Positions 6,182 through 48,399 of a stretch of 64,000 nt of DNA are shown piece by piece. The position numbers were made by a program, and so were the translations under genes. The notes beneath the pieces are model-generated. The model had not been told where the DNA came from and made no database searches. It worked only from the letters and a program-made list of their open reading frames with translations. The stretch spans positions 1,921,796 to 1,985,795 of the forward strand of contig OZ243042.1 in the NCBI GenBank assembly GCA_965212085.1. The letters run 5' to 3'. Each line of letters starts with the position of its first letter. Position 1 is the first letter of the stretch. This DNA comes from Candidatus Poriferihabitaceae bacterium. GTDB taxonomy: Bacteria; Pseudomonadota; Gammaproteobacteria; Arenicellales; Poriferihabitantaceae.

Positions 6182-7507
6182 ATGACGCCGATTGAGGGCA
6201 GGGTGGGCGACCTCACCCGCGATGGCGGCGTGGTCAAAACCGGCGACCGGGTCTACATCGTTGACGGCGCTTTGCCGGGGGAGTGGGTGGCGTTCGAACC
6301 GCGCAACAAGCGCCGGGGGAAATTCCGGGGCGTCCTCAAGCGGATTATCGAGCCGTCCGCGGAGCGGGTCGAACCGCGCTGCAACTATTTCGGCGTGTGC
6401 GGCGGCTGCGCCCAGCAGCATATCGCCCCGGCCGCGCAACTCGCCTTCAAGGAAAAGGTTTTGTTCGACTACCTCAGCCGGGACGCCAACGCGCAGCCCC
6501 AACAAAAACTCAAACCGCTCCACGCATCCCCCTGGCACTACCGCCGCAAAGCGCGCCCCGGCATCCGCCACGTGCCAAAAAAGGGCGGCATCCTGGTGGG
6601 GTTTCGGGAGCGTAACAGCAACTACATCACTTCCCTGATGAACTGCCACACGCTGGACGCGCGACTGTCCGCGCTGCTACCCGGCCTGCACGAACTCCTG
6701 GAGCAGATCAGCCGCCCCACCGCCATCCCGCAGATCGAAATGGCCGCGGCGGACAACGCGCCGGCGCTGGTGCTGCGGCACTTGCAGCCGCTGAGCGGCG
6801 CCGACCTTGCCCTGCTGAGGCGTTTTGCGCAGGAGCGGGCGCTGCAACTTTTTCTGCAGCCCGGCGGCTTGGACACGGTGAAACCGCTGTGGCCCGAATC
6901 CCCGGAATCGTTGTACTACCGCCTCGACGACTACGACCTGACGCTGCGTTTCGCGCCGACGGATTTCATTCAGGTCAACGGCGAAGTCAACGCCTTGCTG
7001 GTCAAACTGACGATGGAGTTGTTGAACCCCGTGCCCGGCGACTTCGTTCTCGACCTGTTCTGCGGCCTCGGCAATTTCACCCTGCCCATCGCCCGCAGCG
7101 GCGCGCGCGTGCTCGGCATCGAAGGCGACCCCGCTTTGACCCGCCGGGGCGCCGAAAACGCCGCGCTCAACGACCTTGCGAACGCCGAATTTCAATGCGC
7201 GGACCTGCACCGCGAAAACATCGCCGCGCCCGTCGGAGAAAAGTTTGACAAGGTCCTGCTCGACCCGCCCAGATCAGGCGCCGCCGAAGTGGTAACACAA
7301 CTAATCCCCGCCATCCGCCCACGGGTCATCGTCTACGTATCGTGCAACCCCGCCACCCTCGCCCGGGACGCCAACATCCTGCTCCACGCCCACGGCTACC
7401 AAATGACCCACGCCGGCGTGATAGATATGTTCCCGCACACCGCCCAGGTAGAATCCGTGGCGCGTTTCGAAACACAGGAACCGGCACGGGGCGGCGGGTG
7501 CGCGTGA
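6182..7507 (+). CDS. rlmD: 23S rRNA (uracil-C5)-methyltransferase RlmD/RumA
   Basis: Start moved to the ATG at 6182 (MTPIEGRVGDL, TRAM-like N-terminus). Fe-S Cys cluster CNYFGVCGGCAQQH. SAM-methyltransferase motifs DLFCGLGNF, LDPPRSG and SCNPATLARD. The stop codon lies inside repeat module B (gcgcgTGAcgcgc). Confidence 0.85.
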   Translation: MTPIEGRVGDLTRDGGVVKTGDRVYIVDGALPGEWVAFEPRNKRRGKFRGVLKRIIEPSAERVEPRCNYFGVCGGCAQQHIAPAAQLAFKEKVLFDYLSRDANAQPQQKLKPLHASPWHYRRKARPGIRHVPKKGGILVGFRERNSNYITSLMNCHTLDARLSALLPGLHELLEQISRPTAIPQIEMAAADNAPALVLRHLQPLSGADLALLRRFAQERALQLFLQPGGLDTVKPLWPESPESLYYRLDDYDLTLRFAPTDFIQVNGEVNALLVKLTMELLNPVPGDFVLDLFCGLGNFTLPIARSGARVLGIEGDPALTRRGAENAALNDLANAEFQCADLHRENIAAPVGEKFDKVLLDPPRSGAAEVVTQLIPAIRPRVIVYVSCNPATLARDANILLHAHGYQMTHAGVIDMFPHTAQVESVARFETQEPARGGGCA

Positions 7508-7915
7508 CGCGCATTTGCGGGGGGAGACCCCCCGCATGCCCCCCTTGCGGCGCGGGAAAACATCCTGTTTTCAGCGCCGCCGTGCGCGTCCTGCGCACGC
7601 CGAAGTCAGCGGCTATCGCCGCCGGTTGGACGGCCGCAGAGGTGTAAAGACAGGCAAGGGGAACGATGGGGCTTGGTCGCTTTTTTTGCGTTTCCTTTGC
7701 CTTGCCTTACGCCTCTGCCGTCATACCCGAACGATAGAAAAATAGGGAGCGCCAGCGACTATATTTTTCATCGTATCGGGAACCCGCTTTTTTGGTTCGG
7801 CGATAGCCGGACTGTCGCGCACAGGGATGTGCGCAGCGGCGCTGAAAACAGGATGTTTTCCCGCGCCGCAAAGGGGGGCGTGGGGGGTCTCCCCCCCACA
7901 ATGCGCGTCACGCGC
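7500..7915. repeat. Mosaic palindromic repeat block: module B (inverted, 7500-7620), module E-like segment, module A (7717-7785), module B (forward, 7799-7915)
   Basis: Module B (~115 bp) contains the hairpin cgcgcacagggatgtgcgcg, the palindrome ggggggtctcccccc and the terminal gcgcgtcacgcgc. Module A (~65 bp) is the long imperfect palindrome cattcccgaacgatagaaaaatagggagcg..cgaccatatttttcatcgtatcgggaat. Both recur at 13.5, 17.1, 42.8 and 48.1 kb. Confidence 0.9.
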
Positions 7916-8075
7916 ATACGCAACCCGCGTACCGCGCGCCGCACAGGGGGGCGTGGGGGGTCTCCCCCCACATGCGCGTCACGCGCATACGCAACCCGCG
8001 CACCGCGCGCCGCACAGGGGGGCGCGGGGGGGCTCCCCCCCCACATGCGCGTCACGCGCAACCCGCCCCGCGCCC
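7873..8075. repeat. Tandem repeat, ~72-bp unit, about 2.5-3 copies, extending from the 3' end of module B
   Basis: The atgcgcgtcacgcgc anchor recurs at 7901, 7972 and 8045 (spacing 71 and 73 bp). Unit: ggggggcgtggggggtctcccccc-acatgcgcgtcacgcgcatacgcaacccgcg.accgcgcgccgcaca. Confidence 0.9.
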
Positions 8076-8144
8076 TCGCGTCGCGCCTCGCCGTCAATCC
8101 GCCTGGATTTCCCCCTTTCCCCCTTCCCCCGGAATTTCTGTTAC

Positions 8145-8345
8145 AATTCGCCCCGGCGTTGCCTGCGGTGTTGGTGATGCCCGCCGGATTCCTTAGAACC
8201 TAATCCACATTCCAGGGAACCATAGTTGGGTCGTGGGCGTGTATTACCACGCTATCGTGGTCAATCCCGAAGCGGCTCCCGGTGCCCACTTGAATCTTCC
8301 TGGTTCAAGGGTAATGCGGGCACACGGCGCAGGCGGGCAGCGTCT
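8145..8345 (+). ncRNA. ssrS: Candidate 6S RNA (ssrS), ends approximate
   Basis: Non-coding stretch immediately upstream of the 5-formyl-THF cyclo-ligase gene, the conserved ssrS-ygfA synteny. The 3' part cuugaaucuuccugguucaaggguaaugcgggc resembles the E. coli 6S segment ccuugaaccaaggguucaaggguuacagccugcggc. Distal pairings gcctgcg(8161-8167)/cgcaggc(8328-8334) and tgcccgc(8178-8184)/gcgggca(8316-8322) fit a long rod with internal bubbles. Confidence 0.55.
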
Positions 8346-47245: not shown

Positions 47246-47282
47246 GCGGGGTAATCAACCTTCTTTCTGATCGTTTATTCAA

Positions 47283-47762
47283 ATGAACACGATCAACCAA
47301 ATTCGCACGACCGAAAAAAACCTTGCTAAATTCAAGCAGGTGCTTTTGTACGTGCTACATGAGGTTGGCGACAAGCCGAATGTCGGCGAGGCGGTGCTTC
47401 ACAAACTTCTTTACTTCATTGATTTCGATTATTACGAGAAGTTTGAAGAAAATTTAATGGGGGCCACCTACATCAAAGATCATCACGGACCTGTTTCGAT
47501 GGAATTGGGTTCAGTTATCGCCGATATAAAGAAACATAGCCCGGTGAAACGCCCGCAACTGGATTTGCTCTCGGTGCGCGAAATCAAGCACATTGATGAC
47601 GTGCTGGCGCGCCTTTCGGATAAAAACGCCAAAGAAATGGACGACTATTCCCGTGAAGACATTCCCTGGAAGTCCGCACGGGATGGCAAGCCTCTTTCTT
47701 ACGAAAGCGTCTTTTACCGCGATGAAAGATATTCCGTAAGAAATTATGGCGATGAAATTTAA
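47283..47762 (+). CDS. Panacea (DUF4065, SocA/PanA-like) antitoxin-domain protein, no adjacent toxin gene
   Basis: 159 aa, AT-rich. Core VLHKLLYFIDFDYYEKFEENLMGATYIKDHHGPVS and C-terminal LSDKNAKEMDDYSREDIPWK match the Panacea pattern (KLLYF...GPV...H.E.PW). Confidence 0.7.
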   Translation: MNTINQIRTTEKNLAKFKQVLLYVLHEVGDKPNVGEAVLHKLLYFIDFDYYEKFEENLMGATYIKDHHGPVSMELGSVIADIKKHSPVKRPQLDLLSVREIKHIDDVLARLSDKNAKEMDDYSREDIPWKSARDGKPLSYESVFYRDERYSVRNYGDEI

Positions 47763-47886
47763 CGGATCGCAAAAAACATCGACAACAACCCGTTCACCCA
47801 TACTCCGAAAAAATCAAATCCTAATCCAGCCAAGTAGGCCCGGTTTCGTCCAATGCATATTGAATCAAACCGGCGGTGGTTCGTAA

Positions 47887-48399
47887 CTGGATTCCCGAGT
47901 ACGCAAGTGTTCGTAAGCCGCTTGCGCGGCAACGGACACTAACGCTCGAGAATGACGGCTGAGGGTACGCGAGTGTATCGGTTGGGCGGTAGGGACAGGT
48001 CGCGACCTGTCCTGTTTGTCAGTGAATTAGTGAACCCATACAATTCCCGCCGCACCTCGCCGTCATTCCCGAACGATAGAAAAATAGGGAGCGATAGCGA
48101 CCATATTTTTCATCGTGTCGGGACAATTTTGCCGGGAGCAAAATTGCGCGTAGCCCGAAGGGCGAGTATCAGGGATGATACGAGCAATCCAGTACCGGCG
48201 GGTAAGCCGGTCAGGTAGTGGCTAACACTGTCGGCTGAACGCTGGATTCCCGAGAGCGCCAAGTGTCCGTAAGCCGCTAACGCGGCAACGGACACTAACG
48301 CTCGGGAATGACGGCAGAGGCGTAAGGACGGGCAAAGGAAGCGACGAAACACCGCCCTCCGAACGCTGGATTCCCGCTAAAATCCTGCGGGAATGACAG
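47887..48399. repeat. Mosaic repeat block: module C (47887-47959), hairpin D (47991-48013), module A (48059-48123) fused to module F (48119-48195), module C (48241-48314), module E (48310-48350), short C-like hairpin (48364-48399)
   Basis: All modules match copies at 7.7, 13.4-13.7, 16.7-17.4 and 42.9 kb. Shared terminal inverted repeat attcccga...tcgggaatgacggc. Confidence 0.9.

Follow-up and report, generated by a model that had tools for sequence, protein, structure and literature searches.

The repeat arrays in this window (the whole 64,000-nucleotide stretch of DNA analysed) are probably mosaics of the NIME kind, defined by modules A, C and S, in which the NTS/dRS3 'Ssn-related motif' takes a long-stem form. 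An earlier note had described six recurring modules in five regions, and all were found there, in both orientations. The arrays, all of them intergenic, occupy ~2.3 kb across the five regions, in keeping with the >2 kb per 64 kb claimed, and the description of the family as modular, mosaic, palindromic and intergenic held. Diagnostic cores occurred five times for A, three for C, four for B and three for D, while dinucleotide-preserving shuffles (n = 100) gave an expectation of 0.00, which places the similarity above chance; identity between module copies was 88-100% over 60-155 nt. Copy numbers were five for A (68 nt), four for C (70-71 nt), three for D, and two each for E and F. B, which consists of four GC-rich hairpins, is listed at five places and can be traced across 155 nt; its tail, of 71-73 nt, is repeated in tandem 2.8 times in the first array. 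A linker, GGCGATAGCCG, recurs in module H and at the beginning of B. The modules lie as follows.

7494..7600, minus: B, inverted, a block of several GC-rich hairpins; the rlmD stop codon (7505-7507) falls within its terminal palindrome GCGCGTGACGCGC
7603..7632, plus: H linker, containing GGCTATCGCC, the reverse complement of GGCGATAGCC at the B start
7692..7724, minus: E, adjoining the GTC end of the next A copy
7720..7787, plus: A with degenerate termini, GTCATACCCGA...TCGGGAACCCGC
7798..8060, plus: B (7798-7915), then the tandem B tail (7862-8060), which ends ~100 nt upstream of the 6S RNA gene
13411..13486, minus (NTS-sense strand minus): C, a 70-nt long-stem hairpin with NTS-type ends
13539..13612, plus: A, intact, 68 nt, GTCATTCCCGA...TCGGGAATCCAG, followed by T7 and then B
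13613..13745, plus: B, part of the array 13409-13746 in the spacer between proV and miaB
16769..16843, plus: F, left edge of the array between ybeY and lnt; does not itself fold strongly (z -0.3)
16871..16912, no strand: D, palindrome GCACAGGTCGCGACCTGTCC
16950..17024, plus (NTS-sense strand plus): C
17050..17118, minus (NTS-sense strand minus): A, intact
17153..17172, no strand: D palindrome, copy 2
17213..17370, plus: B in its longest form, 155 nt, 95% complementary to 42763-42917
42762..42917, minus: B, inverted, ~50 nt past the etfA stop codon (42713)
42949..43020, minus: A variant with a GTC-type sequence at both ends (GCCGTCATTCCCGA...TCGGGAATGACGGC)
47887..47959, minus: C with one stem-base mismatch
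47993..48012, no strand: D palindrome, copy 3
48062..48123, plus: A, truncated, without the full CCAG end, fused to an inverted F (48119-48193)
48239..48315, minus: C, intact
48308..48360, plus: E, adjoining the GTC end of the preceding C
48362..48399, minus: short hairpin S, GTCATTCCCGCAGGATTTTAGCGGGAATCCAG; the hairpin itself is 32 nt (48366-48397) and has dRS3/NTS-like ends
48401..48443, plus: H linker, copy 2
48845..48868, plus: orphan 3' fragment of A (TTTCATCGTATTGGGAATCCAG)

A, C and S all bear the same termini. That A and C share ends that look like an enzyme recognition site had been noticed before, and this part stands; the ends are, however, asymmetric and oriented, GTC-ATTCCCG...CGGGAAT-CCAG, and the terminus previously given as tcgggaatgacggc is the GTC end read on the opposite strand. 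The published NTS is CGTCATTCCCGCGMAVGCGGGAATCYRG and dRS3 is ATTCCC-N8-GGGAAT (PMC11893778), while the window units read (C)GTCATTCCCGA...TCGGGAATCCAG, with GTC, the stem base and the 3' C kept in 7 of 10. Judged by sequence, the ends of A, C and S are those of the Neisseria NTS/dRS3 motif, flanks and stem base alike; SsnA, a 94-aa GIY-YIG ssDNA nuclease of the cd10448 family, targets this motif (PMC11893778). In the predicted ssDNA folds of all three modules, ATTCCCG and CGGGAAT are paired at the base and GTC and CCAG are free (A at 13539..13612, -20.2 kcal/mol, z -7.8; C at 13411..13486, -27.4 kcal/mol, z -6.3; S, z -4.6). This resembles the NTS hairpin, in which the free GTC and C are critical for SsnA: in Neisseria, the 5' GTC is needed for cutting and the 3' C(CAG) for binding (PMC11893778). 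Across the A hairpin, 25 pairs were 98% paired with 0 double changes; with no compensatory covariation, the case for structure comes only from thermodynamics and from the retention of hairpins in different families.

The published SRM, NTS and strict dRS3 patterns gave 0 matches within the window. The loops of the window units are far beyond the pattern limit, their fifth stem pair is A-T, not C-G or G-C, and the two hexamers of S are spaced by 13 nt, not 8. A and C probably belong, as a long-stem form that the published SRM/dRS3 patterns overlook, to an already known repeat-nuclease system: they measure 68-72 nt, against 20-50 nt for SRM and 28 nt for NTS (PMC11893778), and their hexamers are separated by an additional palindromic stretch of 49-52 nt. 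The setting also differs, since the host is an Arenicellales sponge symbiont, a group not named in the parts of PMC11893778 used here, and the window has no ssn gene: as the earlier note had reported for a cognate enzyme, tblastn for ssn and Pfam/NCBIfam scans of the window found none.

The window is not Neisseria DNA; its genes are 82-86% identical to those of OZ253546.1, a Candidatus Poriferihabitaceae (Arenicellales) sponge-symbiont genome, 248 kb of which contained 282 units with NTS-type ends: 70 of 27 nt, 104 of 68 nt (A) and 80 of 70-72 nt. Its short hairpins included 6 exact matches to the Neisseria NTS consensus and 42 with at most one mismatch, and its A copies, more than 100, are near-identical. 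Among 116 A copies, conservation begins exactly at GTC and stops at CCAG, with several flank classes on each side. Such a high copy number in a host-associated bacterium is a likeness to SRM, as SRM-rich genomes are enriched in symbionts (PMC11893778). The OZ253546.1 genome and three co-resident relatives encode a 98-aa GIY-YIG protein (Pfam PF01541, E 2e-17), and each of these genes has module A on both sides, so that the repeats flank the nuclease gene as in the SRM/NTS-SsnA system. In this protein, Y9/Y20/E67 are spaced like Y6/Y17/E64, the catalytic residues of SsnA (PMC11893778). For homologues 57-67% identical, hairpins with the same ends were present at 61 of 80 metagenome loci, and a homologue in a Rhodocyclaceae MAG has canonical NTS hairpins on its flanks, each one mismatch from the consensus; what is conserved across phyla is the end sequence, not structure alone.

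The elements proved to be genome-wide in the relatives and polymorphic in presence and absence. In L060, a relative 91-96% identical to the window, arrays 2 and 3 are missing: the orthologous spacer between proV and miaB lacks the whole array 13409-13746 and contains the B tail alone, and the site of the ~650-bp array at 16773-17419 is occupied by a lone canonical dRS3 hairpin, ATTCCCGCGCAGGCGGGAATCCAG. Between co-resident strains, the number of copies of a 102-nt unit of A plus linker varies by 2, 4 or 6, and array 1 is located at a synteny break. At their outer edges the window arrays carry modules F and B instead of NTS-type hairpins, and recombination accounts for the arrival of whole arrays better than insertion unit by unit does.

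These features are closest to NIMEs rather than to the BIME/MITE-like architecture first proposed. NIMEs consist of dRS3 inverted repeats flanking ~100 families of RS elements (PMC1797815), and they share with the window intergenic hairpin arrays with ATTCCC/GGGAAT ends, many 20-150-nt repeat families in between, array length and content that vary among close relatives at syntenic sites, entry of insertion sequences, and coincidence with rearrangement and variable regions. Unlike the window hairpins, which are mostly long-stemmed, dRS3 units are 20 bp, and NIMEs have been called Neisseria-specific; the window filler includes the very GC-rich multi-hairpin B, while in Neisseria the GC content of RS elements is below that of the hairpins.

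On this basis, each unit would be a sharply bounded ssDNA hairpin with ATTCCCG/CGGGAAT at its base, an unpaired 5' GTC and a 3' C(CAG), into which the NTS-sense strand would fold during the single-stranded phases of replication, repair or uptake. It may be bound by a 98-aa single-domain Ssn-family GIY-YIG nuclease encoded elsewhere in the genome, which would nick a few nucleotides upstream of the hairpin. Recurrent cutting and repair, together with slippage and homologous exchange among copies, could make arrays arise, grow, shrink and shuffle, and could also turn them into rearrangement hot spots. B, D, E, F and H would be 'RS-like' filler and extra GC-rich palindromes riding in the mosaic; B, D and F are tied to Ssn only by association and have no NTS features. 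Presumably, the window's own genome encodes an Ssn that cuts the long-stem forms, and the cell would draw some gain from the system.

That the hairpins are REPs multiplied by a domesticated IS200/IS605-type Y1 transposase (RAYT) is very unlikely. As in the REP/BIME and REPIN-RAYT systems of Enterobacteria and Pseudomonas, successive palindromic units face opposite ways more often than the same way (146 vs 79) and are joined by fixed-length linkers, the arrays are intergenic, and a small enzyme gene, for an enzyme that recognises ssDNA hairpins, lies between its own repeats; but the gene between the A copies encodes a GIY-YIG nuclease, not an HUH Y1 transposase. REP units carry a 5' GTAG-type tetranucleotide, whereas the ends here are NTS. 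Ten uncharacterised ORFs between close hairpins (~370 kb of related loci, searched with Pfam) included no Y1 transposase, being housekeeping genes and one IS30-like transposase, and other such ORFs include ssn; the RAYT or IS200-type enzyme suggested earlier was absent among the hairpin-flanked ORFs of these loci, which cover part of the relative genome. The A and C ends do not belong to a RAYT/IS200-type or DDE transposon but match the NTS/dRS3 hairpin. Least probable of all is that A and C are MITEs, non-autonomous deletion derivatives of a DDE insertion sequence with terminal inverted repeats ATTCCCGA/TCGGGAAT. Like Correia elements and other MITEs, they are short non-coding repeats in which unrelated cores share inverted ends, boundaries are sharp, flanks vary and relatives differ in presence/absence. 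Against this, the ends are asymmetric (GTC vs CCAG) and just 8 nt long, the 27-nt forms have no room for cargo, and no matching parent insertion sequence was found in the loci examined. For the non-autonomous mobile element reading of the earlier note, reading by eye likewise showed no target-site duplication at A-ssn-A junctions, in the A consensus or in the major flank classes. The sole transposase gene near arrays is IS30-like and lies in L030; its inverted repeats are unrelated, and it is inserted within a short hairpin, which makes the hairpins its target, not its products. A main function in transcripts, as terminators or 3'-end stabilisers, is quite unlikely, even though the predicted hairpins are stable, arrays 1, 2 and 4 start right after the stop codons of rlmD, a proV-like gene and etfA, respectively, and 6-7 T follow A where it adjoins B. 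This T run is missing after A in the OZ253546.1 genome, units occur in both orientations and both upstream and downstream of genes, conservation across phyla extends beyond structure to the end sequence, and no Rfam family matched. Terminator-like sites were at shuffle expectation with none of the modules called, and since SsnA does not bind RNA (PMC11893778), the proposed terminator or stabiliser role would be at best secondary.

Two further possibilities concern recombination and the filler. It is unlikely, though compatible with the Ssn reading, that the arrays are scars of repeated integration and excision at recombinase targets. dRS3 is a documented phage integration target and the original NIME hypothesis invoked a recombinase (PMC1797815); the IS30-like element within a hairpin, the synteny break at array 1 and the position of array 3, exactly where L060 has one dRS3, point the same way. 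However, there was no IS110/Piv-type or phage gene in the window or beside the arrays of the loci examined, the modules were not found in IMG/VR viral contigs, and the strain differences observed were gains and losses of tandem units. It is a possible but doubtful alternative that B, D and F are unrelated to the NTS-type hairpins, have a mechanism of their own and just happen to lie in the same spacers. None of them has NTS ends; B, unlike A, which is shared with the OZ253546.1 genome, was seen nowhere outside the window lineage (the window plus L060) except for a single 32-nt fragment in that genome; and its tail forms a tandem array of its own and stands solitary in the L060 spacer between proV and miaB. 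Conversely, B opens with GGCGATAGCCG, the linker that follows the CCAG end of A in the OZ253546.1 genome, every B in the window shares its array with A, and the 'RS' elements of NIMEs are heterogeneous filler too (PMC1797815).

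To define how the recurring repeat units are arranged, we used each module as a BLAST query against the window. The modules described in the earlier note were all recovered when the regions were read and repeats detected, in both orientations and with 88-100% identity over 60-155 nt, and the resulting map gave the following array grammar, in which S is a short hairpin and H a linker.

Repeat arrays in the window, with their module order and neighboring genes
7494-8060: array 1, B(-) H E(-) A(+) B(+), with the B tail then repeated in tandem; between rlmD and 6S RNA
13411-13745: array 2, C, spacer, A, B; between a proV-like gene and miaB
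16769-17370: array 3, F, D, C, A(-), D, B; between ybeY and lnt
42762-43020: array 4, B(-), A(-); between etfA and Zn-ADH
47887-48443: array 5, C, D, A, F(-), C, E, S, H; between a Panacea-domain ORF and a DUF4189 ORF
48845-48868: orphan A fragment

Every array in the window is intergenic, and the B-tail tandem of array 1 has a period of 71-73 nt and 2.8 copies. The repeat system of the window is real and non-random: the diagnostic cores of A, C, B and D occurred 5, 3, 4 and 3 times, respectively, against 0.00 expected from 100 shuffles. At the left edge of array 1, the last codons of rlmD and its TGA stop (7494-7507) lie within the terminal palindrome GCGCGTGACGCGC of the inverted module B, so that the repeat provides the end of the reading frame. 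Directly 3' of the same array lies the 6S RNA gene (8157-8343, plus strand; Rfam RF00013, 56.5 bits).

We then examined the hairpin ends in the light of the Neisseria repeats known as dRS3 and NTS. According to the 2025 report describing the Ssn nucleases (PMC11893778), the dRS3 repeat, ATTCCC-N8-GGGAAT, is part of an oriented 28-nt hairpin, the NTS (CGTCATTCCCGCGMAVGCGGGAATCYRG), which is bound solely as single-stranded DNA by SsnA, a 94-aa single-domain GIY-YIG protein that cuts a few nucleotides upstream. The GTC triplet 5' of the palindrome is most important for cutting, the C immediately 3' of the palindrome is most important for binding, and Ssn-related motifs (SRMs) typically lie on both sides of ssnA genes (PMC11893778). 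The earlier note had given modules A and C the common ends attcccga/tcgggaat; these are indeed shared, but the description was incomplete, since the ends are oriented, reading GTC-ATTCCCG ... CGGGAAT-CCAG (end-anchored form, GTCATTCCCG ... CGGGAATCCAG), and are also found on the short hairpin S at 48366-48397. Of the A, C and S units in the window, 7 of 10 kept the oriented flanks GTC (5') and C(CAG) (3'). As single-stranded DNA, all three units were predicted to fold into a hairpin with ATTCCCG/CGGGAAT at its base and with GTC and CCAG unpaired; the z-scores were -7.8 for A, -6.3 for C and -4.6 for S, and none of 200 shuffles folded equally well. Judged on sequence, the flanks and stem base of the window units are those of the Neisseria NTS.

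The strict dRS3 pattern had no match in the window, where the hexamer pairs are spaced by 13 nt in S and by 49-52 nt in A and C, and the NTS pattern, allowing one mismatch at most, likewise had none. The SRM pattern HGTCWYN(0-2)YYVSBRHN(0-5)WNVSBRGN(0-2)RNCYNB gave 0 matches in the window against 0.47 expected from Markov-chain random sequences of the same dinucleotide frequencies, because the window units differ from it in loop length and carry an A-T fifth stem pair; a loop-extended version of the pattern still missed A and C because of that fifth pair. The "loop" of A and C is 49-52 nt of extra palindrome. A long-stem hairpin of 68-72 nt that escapes the published search patterns is the motif's dominant form in some lineages, so surveys of SRM abundance probably undercount.

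To place the window, we scanned one genome per species for a 17-mer of module A, and about 31 of the 57 loci among the matches listed fell on a single chromosome, OZ253546.1, from a 'Candidatus Poriferihabitaceae bacterium' (Gammaproteobacteria, Arenicellales) whose host is the sponge Phakellia ventilabrum. Genes of the window are 82-86% identical to this chromosome at the DNA level, and the window therefore comes from a related sponge symbiont; a Neisseriaceae source, which the ATTCCC/GGGAAT ends might have suggested, was rejected on this basis. Long arrays of OZ253546.1 contain module A, and 282 units with GTC/CCAG-type ends were found in 248 kb of this chromosome, their lengths including 27 nt (70 units), 68 nt, which is module A (104), and 70-72 nt (80). 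Adjacent units were mostly in opposite orientation (146 versus 79 in the same orientation), with fixed linker lengths. The regular spacing of 250-300 nt in these arrays might be read as CRISPR-like, a reading we rejected, since the 'spacers' consist of repeats too and unit orientation alternates. The same loci held 27 strict dRS3 repeats and 48 matches to the SRM pattern, and the 248 kb held 42 short hairpins matching the NTS pattern with one mismatch at most, 6 of them exactly.

Copies of the 68-nt module A in the window lineage (13542-13609, and positions 1721-1788 of the close relative L060) share 97-100% identity with those of OZ253546.1. Such high identity, despite the 82-86% identity of genes, may reflect constraint acting on the entire unit, concerted evolution, recent spread, or horizontal transfer among symbionts living in the same host. 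In 116 copies of A, the conservation profile runs from GTC to CCAG, and several classes of flank occur on either side. Testing 48 distinct variants of A for covariation revealed no compensatory changes, the copies being too alike to inform it.

Related long hairpins were observed elsewhere. A 72-nt unit, 'N' (L021:3870-3960 and many sites of OZ253546.1), is a long hairpin with NTS ends whose interior holds another NTS-like hairpin in the opposite orientation (GTCATTCCCGCTGTCGCGGAAATAAC), giving an NTS-sense hairpin on both strands; it looks like a nested insertion. In a third lineage, the Arenicellales MAG OY843749.1 (L014:1290-1600 and 3380-3690), A-like and C-like units have the variant 3' end GGGAATCTCC in place of GGGAATCCAG and a different C inner loop, and their presence there implies that the long-stem families are older than the split of the symbiont lineages or are mobile between them. 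A 60-nt long hairpin with NTS ends and a further different core, GTCATTCCCGCAGTCCCCTGCTTACAGCCTGCAGGGGTAGGCTTTTAAGCGGGAATCCAG, lies at L211:16568-16627, on a contig of ENA ERZ25071859 whose LeuS is 79% identical to that of OZ253546.1.

We next considered the nuclease. The statement in the earlier note that no cognate enzyme gene is present in the window held up: tblastn was negative, and Pfam and NCBIfam searches of essentially all genes of the window revealed no relevant nuclease or transposase. OZ253546.1, by comparison, carries genes for a 98-aa single-domain GIY-YIG protein (Pfam E 2e-17), each bracketed by module A in direct orientation, with two A-ssn-A units in tandem, and the A-ssn-A arrangement recurred in three further genomes co-resident in that sponge. 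The residues Tyr9/Tyr20/Glu67 of this protein have the same spacing as the catalytic Tyr6/Tyr17/Glu64 of SsnA (PMC11893778). By its size, Pfam domain, residue spacing and flanking repeats, it is a candidate member of the Ssn nuclease family (cd10448). A PDB sequence search with the 98-aa protein returned spurious WD40 repeats and weak GIY-YIG matches, and no solved Ssn structure. The family is huge; of 80 metagenomic loci whose homologues are 57-67% identical, 61 carry hairpins ending in the same way, mostly of 27 nt, and canonical NTS hairpins, each one mismatch from the consensus, lie on both sides of a Rhodocyclaceae homologue. Extended hairpin forms are present but rare near other ssn genes and dominant in the window. 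A LeuS synteny look-up showed the L211 contig to be without ssn at the Mtase-leuS position, where OZ253546.1 strains carry it. Upstream of some canonical NTS hairpins adjoining ssn genes in metagenomes, we observed tandem left half-sites only, GTCATTCCCGC plus 5-10 nt, in up to 5 copies (L206:58-162, L209:152-373 and L156:2874-3452); no mention of this pattern was found in the available portions of PMC11893778.

The arrays differ between close relatives. Orthologous loci were obtained via YbeY, and L060 is 91-96% identical to window positions 8003-18555. The presence/absence polymorphism that the earlier note had proposed looking for was borne out here, in that L060 lacks both array 2, in place of which there is a 44-bp spacer with the B-tail palindrome only, and array 3, where its one strict dRS3 hairpin, the canonical ATTCCCGCGCAGGCGGGAATCCAG, stands exactly at the site of the 650-bp array. 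More distant relatives have neither array 3 nor the dRS3 hairpin at this site. Array 1 coincides with a break in synteny: the window lacks the genes that L060 and L061, another relative, have upstream of ssrS; the usual zapA-ssrS linkage, kept in L061, is broken there, with rlmD upstream in the window and a DUF4340 gene in L060. The copy number of a 102-nt [A + linker] unit varies by 2, 4 or 6 between the arrays of co-resident strains. The edges of the window arrays are F and B rather than NTS-ended hairpins; whole arrays were probably brought in by recombination.

Together, these results are best explained if the window modules represent a long-stem variant of the Ssn/NTS-dRS3 hairpin family that a sponge-symbiont lineage carries in NIME-like arrays; the window system is a variant of an already known repeat family and not a separate kind. 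Neisserial intergenic mosaic elements (NIMEs) are arrays of dRS3-type hairpins with RS repeat families of 20-214 bp between them, variable among strains at syntenic sites, and were held in 2007 to be peculiar to Neisseria (PMC1797815). The window arrays share this combination of hairpins and repeat families, variable at syntenic sites and in unit number, but their hairpins are long-stem variants, and the resemblance is one of architecture. Modules B, D and F are devoid of NTS features and were seen only in the window lineage, save for one 32-nt B fragment outside it; they may represent a family of their own or filler of the RS type. A bolder reading, which we consider rather improbable, is that A and C would be distinct 'NTS-capped' long-hairpin elements mobilised by the GIY-YIG Ssn, with arrays seeded at solitary dRS3 sites and exchanged horizontally among co-resident sponge symbionts, as hinted by the 97-100% identity of A, its base-sharp boundaries and the single dRS3 at the 650-bp array site. 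Such elements would resemble the REPIN-RAYT pair in being a non-autonomous system and differ from it in having a nuclease as driver, and we know of no strand-transfer chemistry in an Ssn nuclease.

Other origins of the repeats found less support. A RAYT/REP system, which the earlier note had raised, would call for a Y1 (HUH) transposase, and none was present in the window or among the hairpin-flanked ORFs scanned, which covered part of the genome. MITEs would be expected to show target-site duplications and terminal inverted repeats like those of a parent insertion sequence; neither the junctions inspected by eye nor the consensus flanks displayed a visible duplication, and the sole nearby insertion sequence is IS30-like. 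This element (L030:2811-3840 on OZ253546.1; HTH_38 + rve transposase) has inserted within a short NTS-type hairpin (CTGGATTCCC, IS, ...ATTCCCGCTTTCGCGAGAATGACGG), and its inverted repeats, TGAATTCACAAACGAAGCGCAAC, bear no relation to the ends of the hairpins, which makes the hairpins insertion targets. The role in transcript termination suggested earlier was not supported, as terminator and promoter scans were at chance level, the units occur in both orientations, and SsnA ignores RNA (PMC11893778). Hairpins acting as recombinase or phage attachment sites would be compatible with the data, but neither a gene of this kind nor a copy in a virus was observed, and scans of viral contigs for the A and C cores gave chance matches only.

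On the long-stem NTS reading, the dRS3/NTS-Ssn system, whose repeats were linked to an enzyme only in 2025 (PMC11893778), and NIME-like arrays would extend to marine sponge symbionts of the Arenicellales. These genomes offer a natural experiment on repeat spread and on the role of Ssn-type nucleases outside naturally transformable pathogens: array content varies among close relatives as well as among co-resident strains, and the site of a full array in one genome has a lone hairpin in another. The arrays are also likely assembly breakpoints in symbiont MAGs.

Two low-GC stretches of the window were also observed. A 9.1-kb island (22297-31446; 40-54% GC), absent between acnB and mdh in L061, holds a complete SspABCD-SspE phosphorothioate defence system, as matched by PADLOC (SspE, E 3e-266; SspD, 7e-136; SspC, E 0; SspB, 3e-106; SspA, 4e-126). 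The other, at 47283-50534, adjoins array 5 and includes the following genes.

Genes of the low-GC stretch adjoining array 5
47283-47762: SocA/Panacea antitoxin-domain protein
48443-48850, minus strand: DUF4189 protein
48923-49642, minus strand: ORF without a family
49710-50534, minus strand: ankyrin-repeat protein, of a type typical of sponge symbionts
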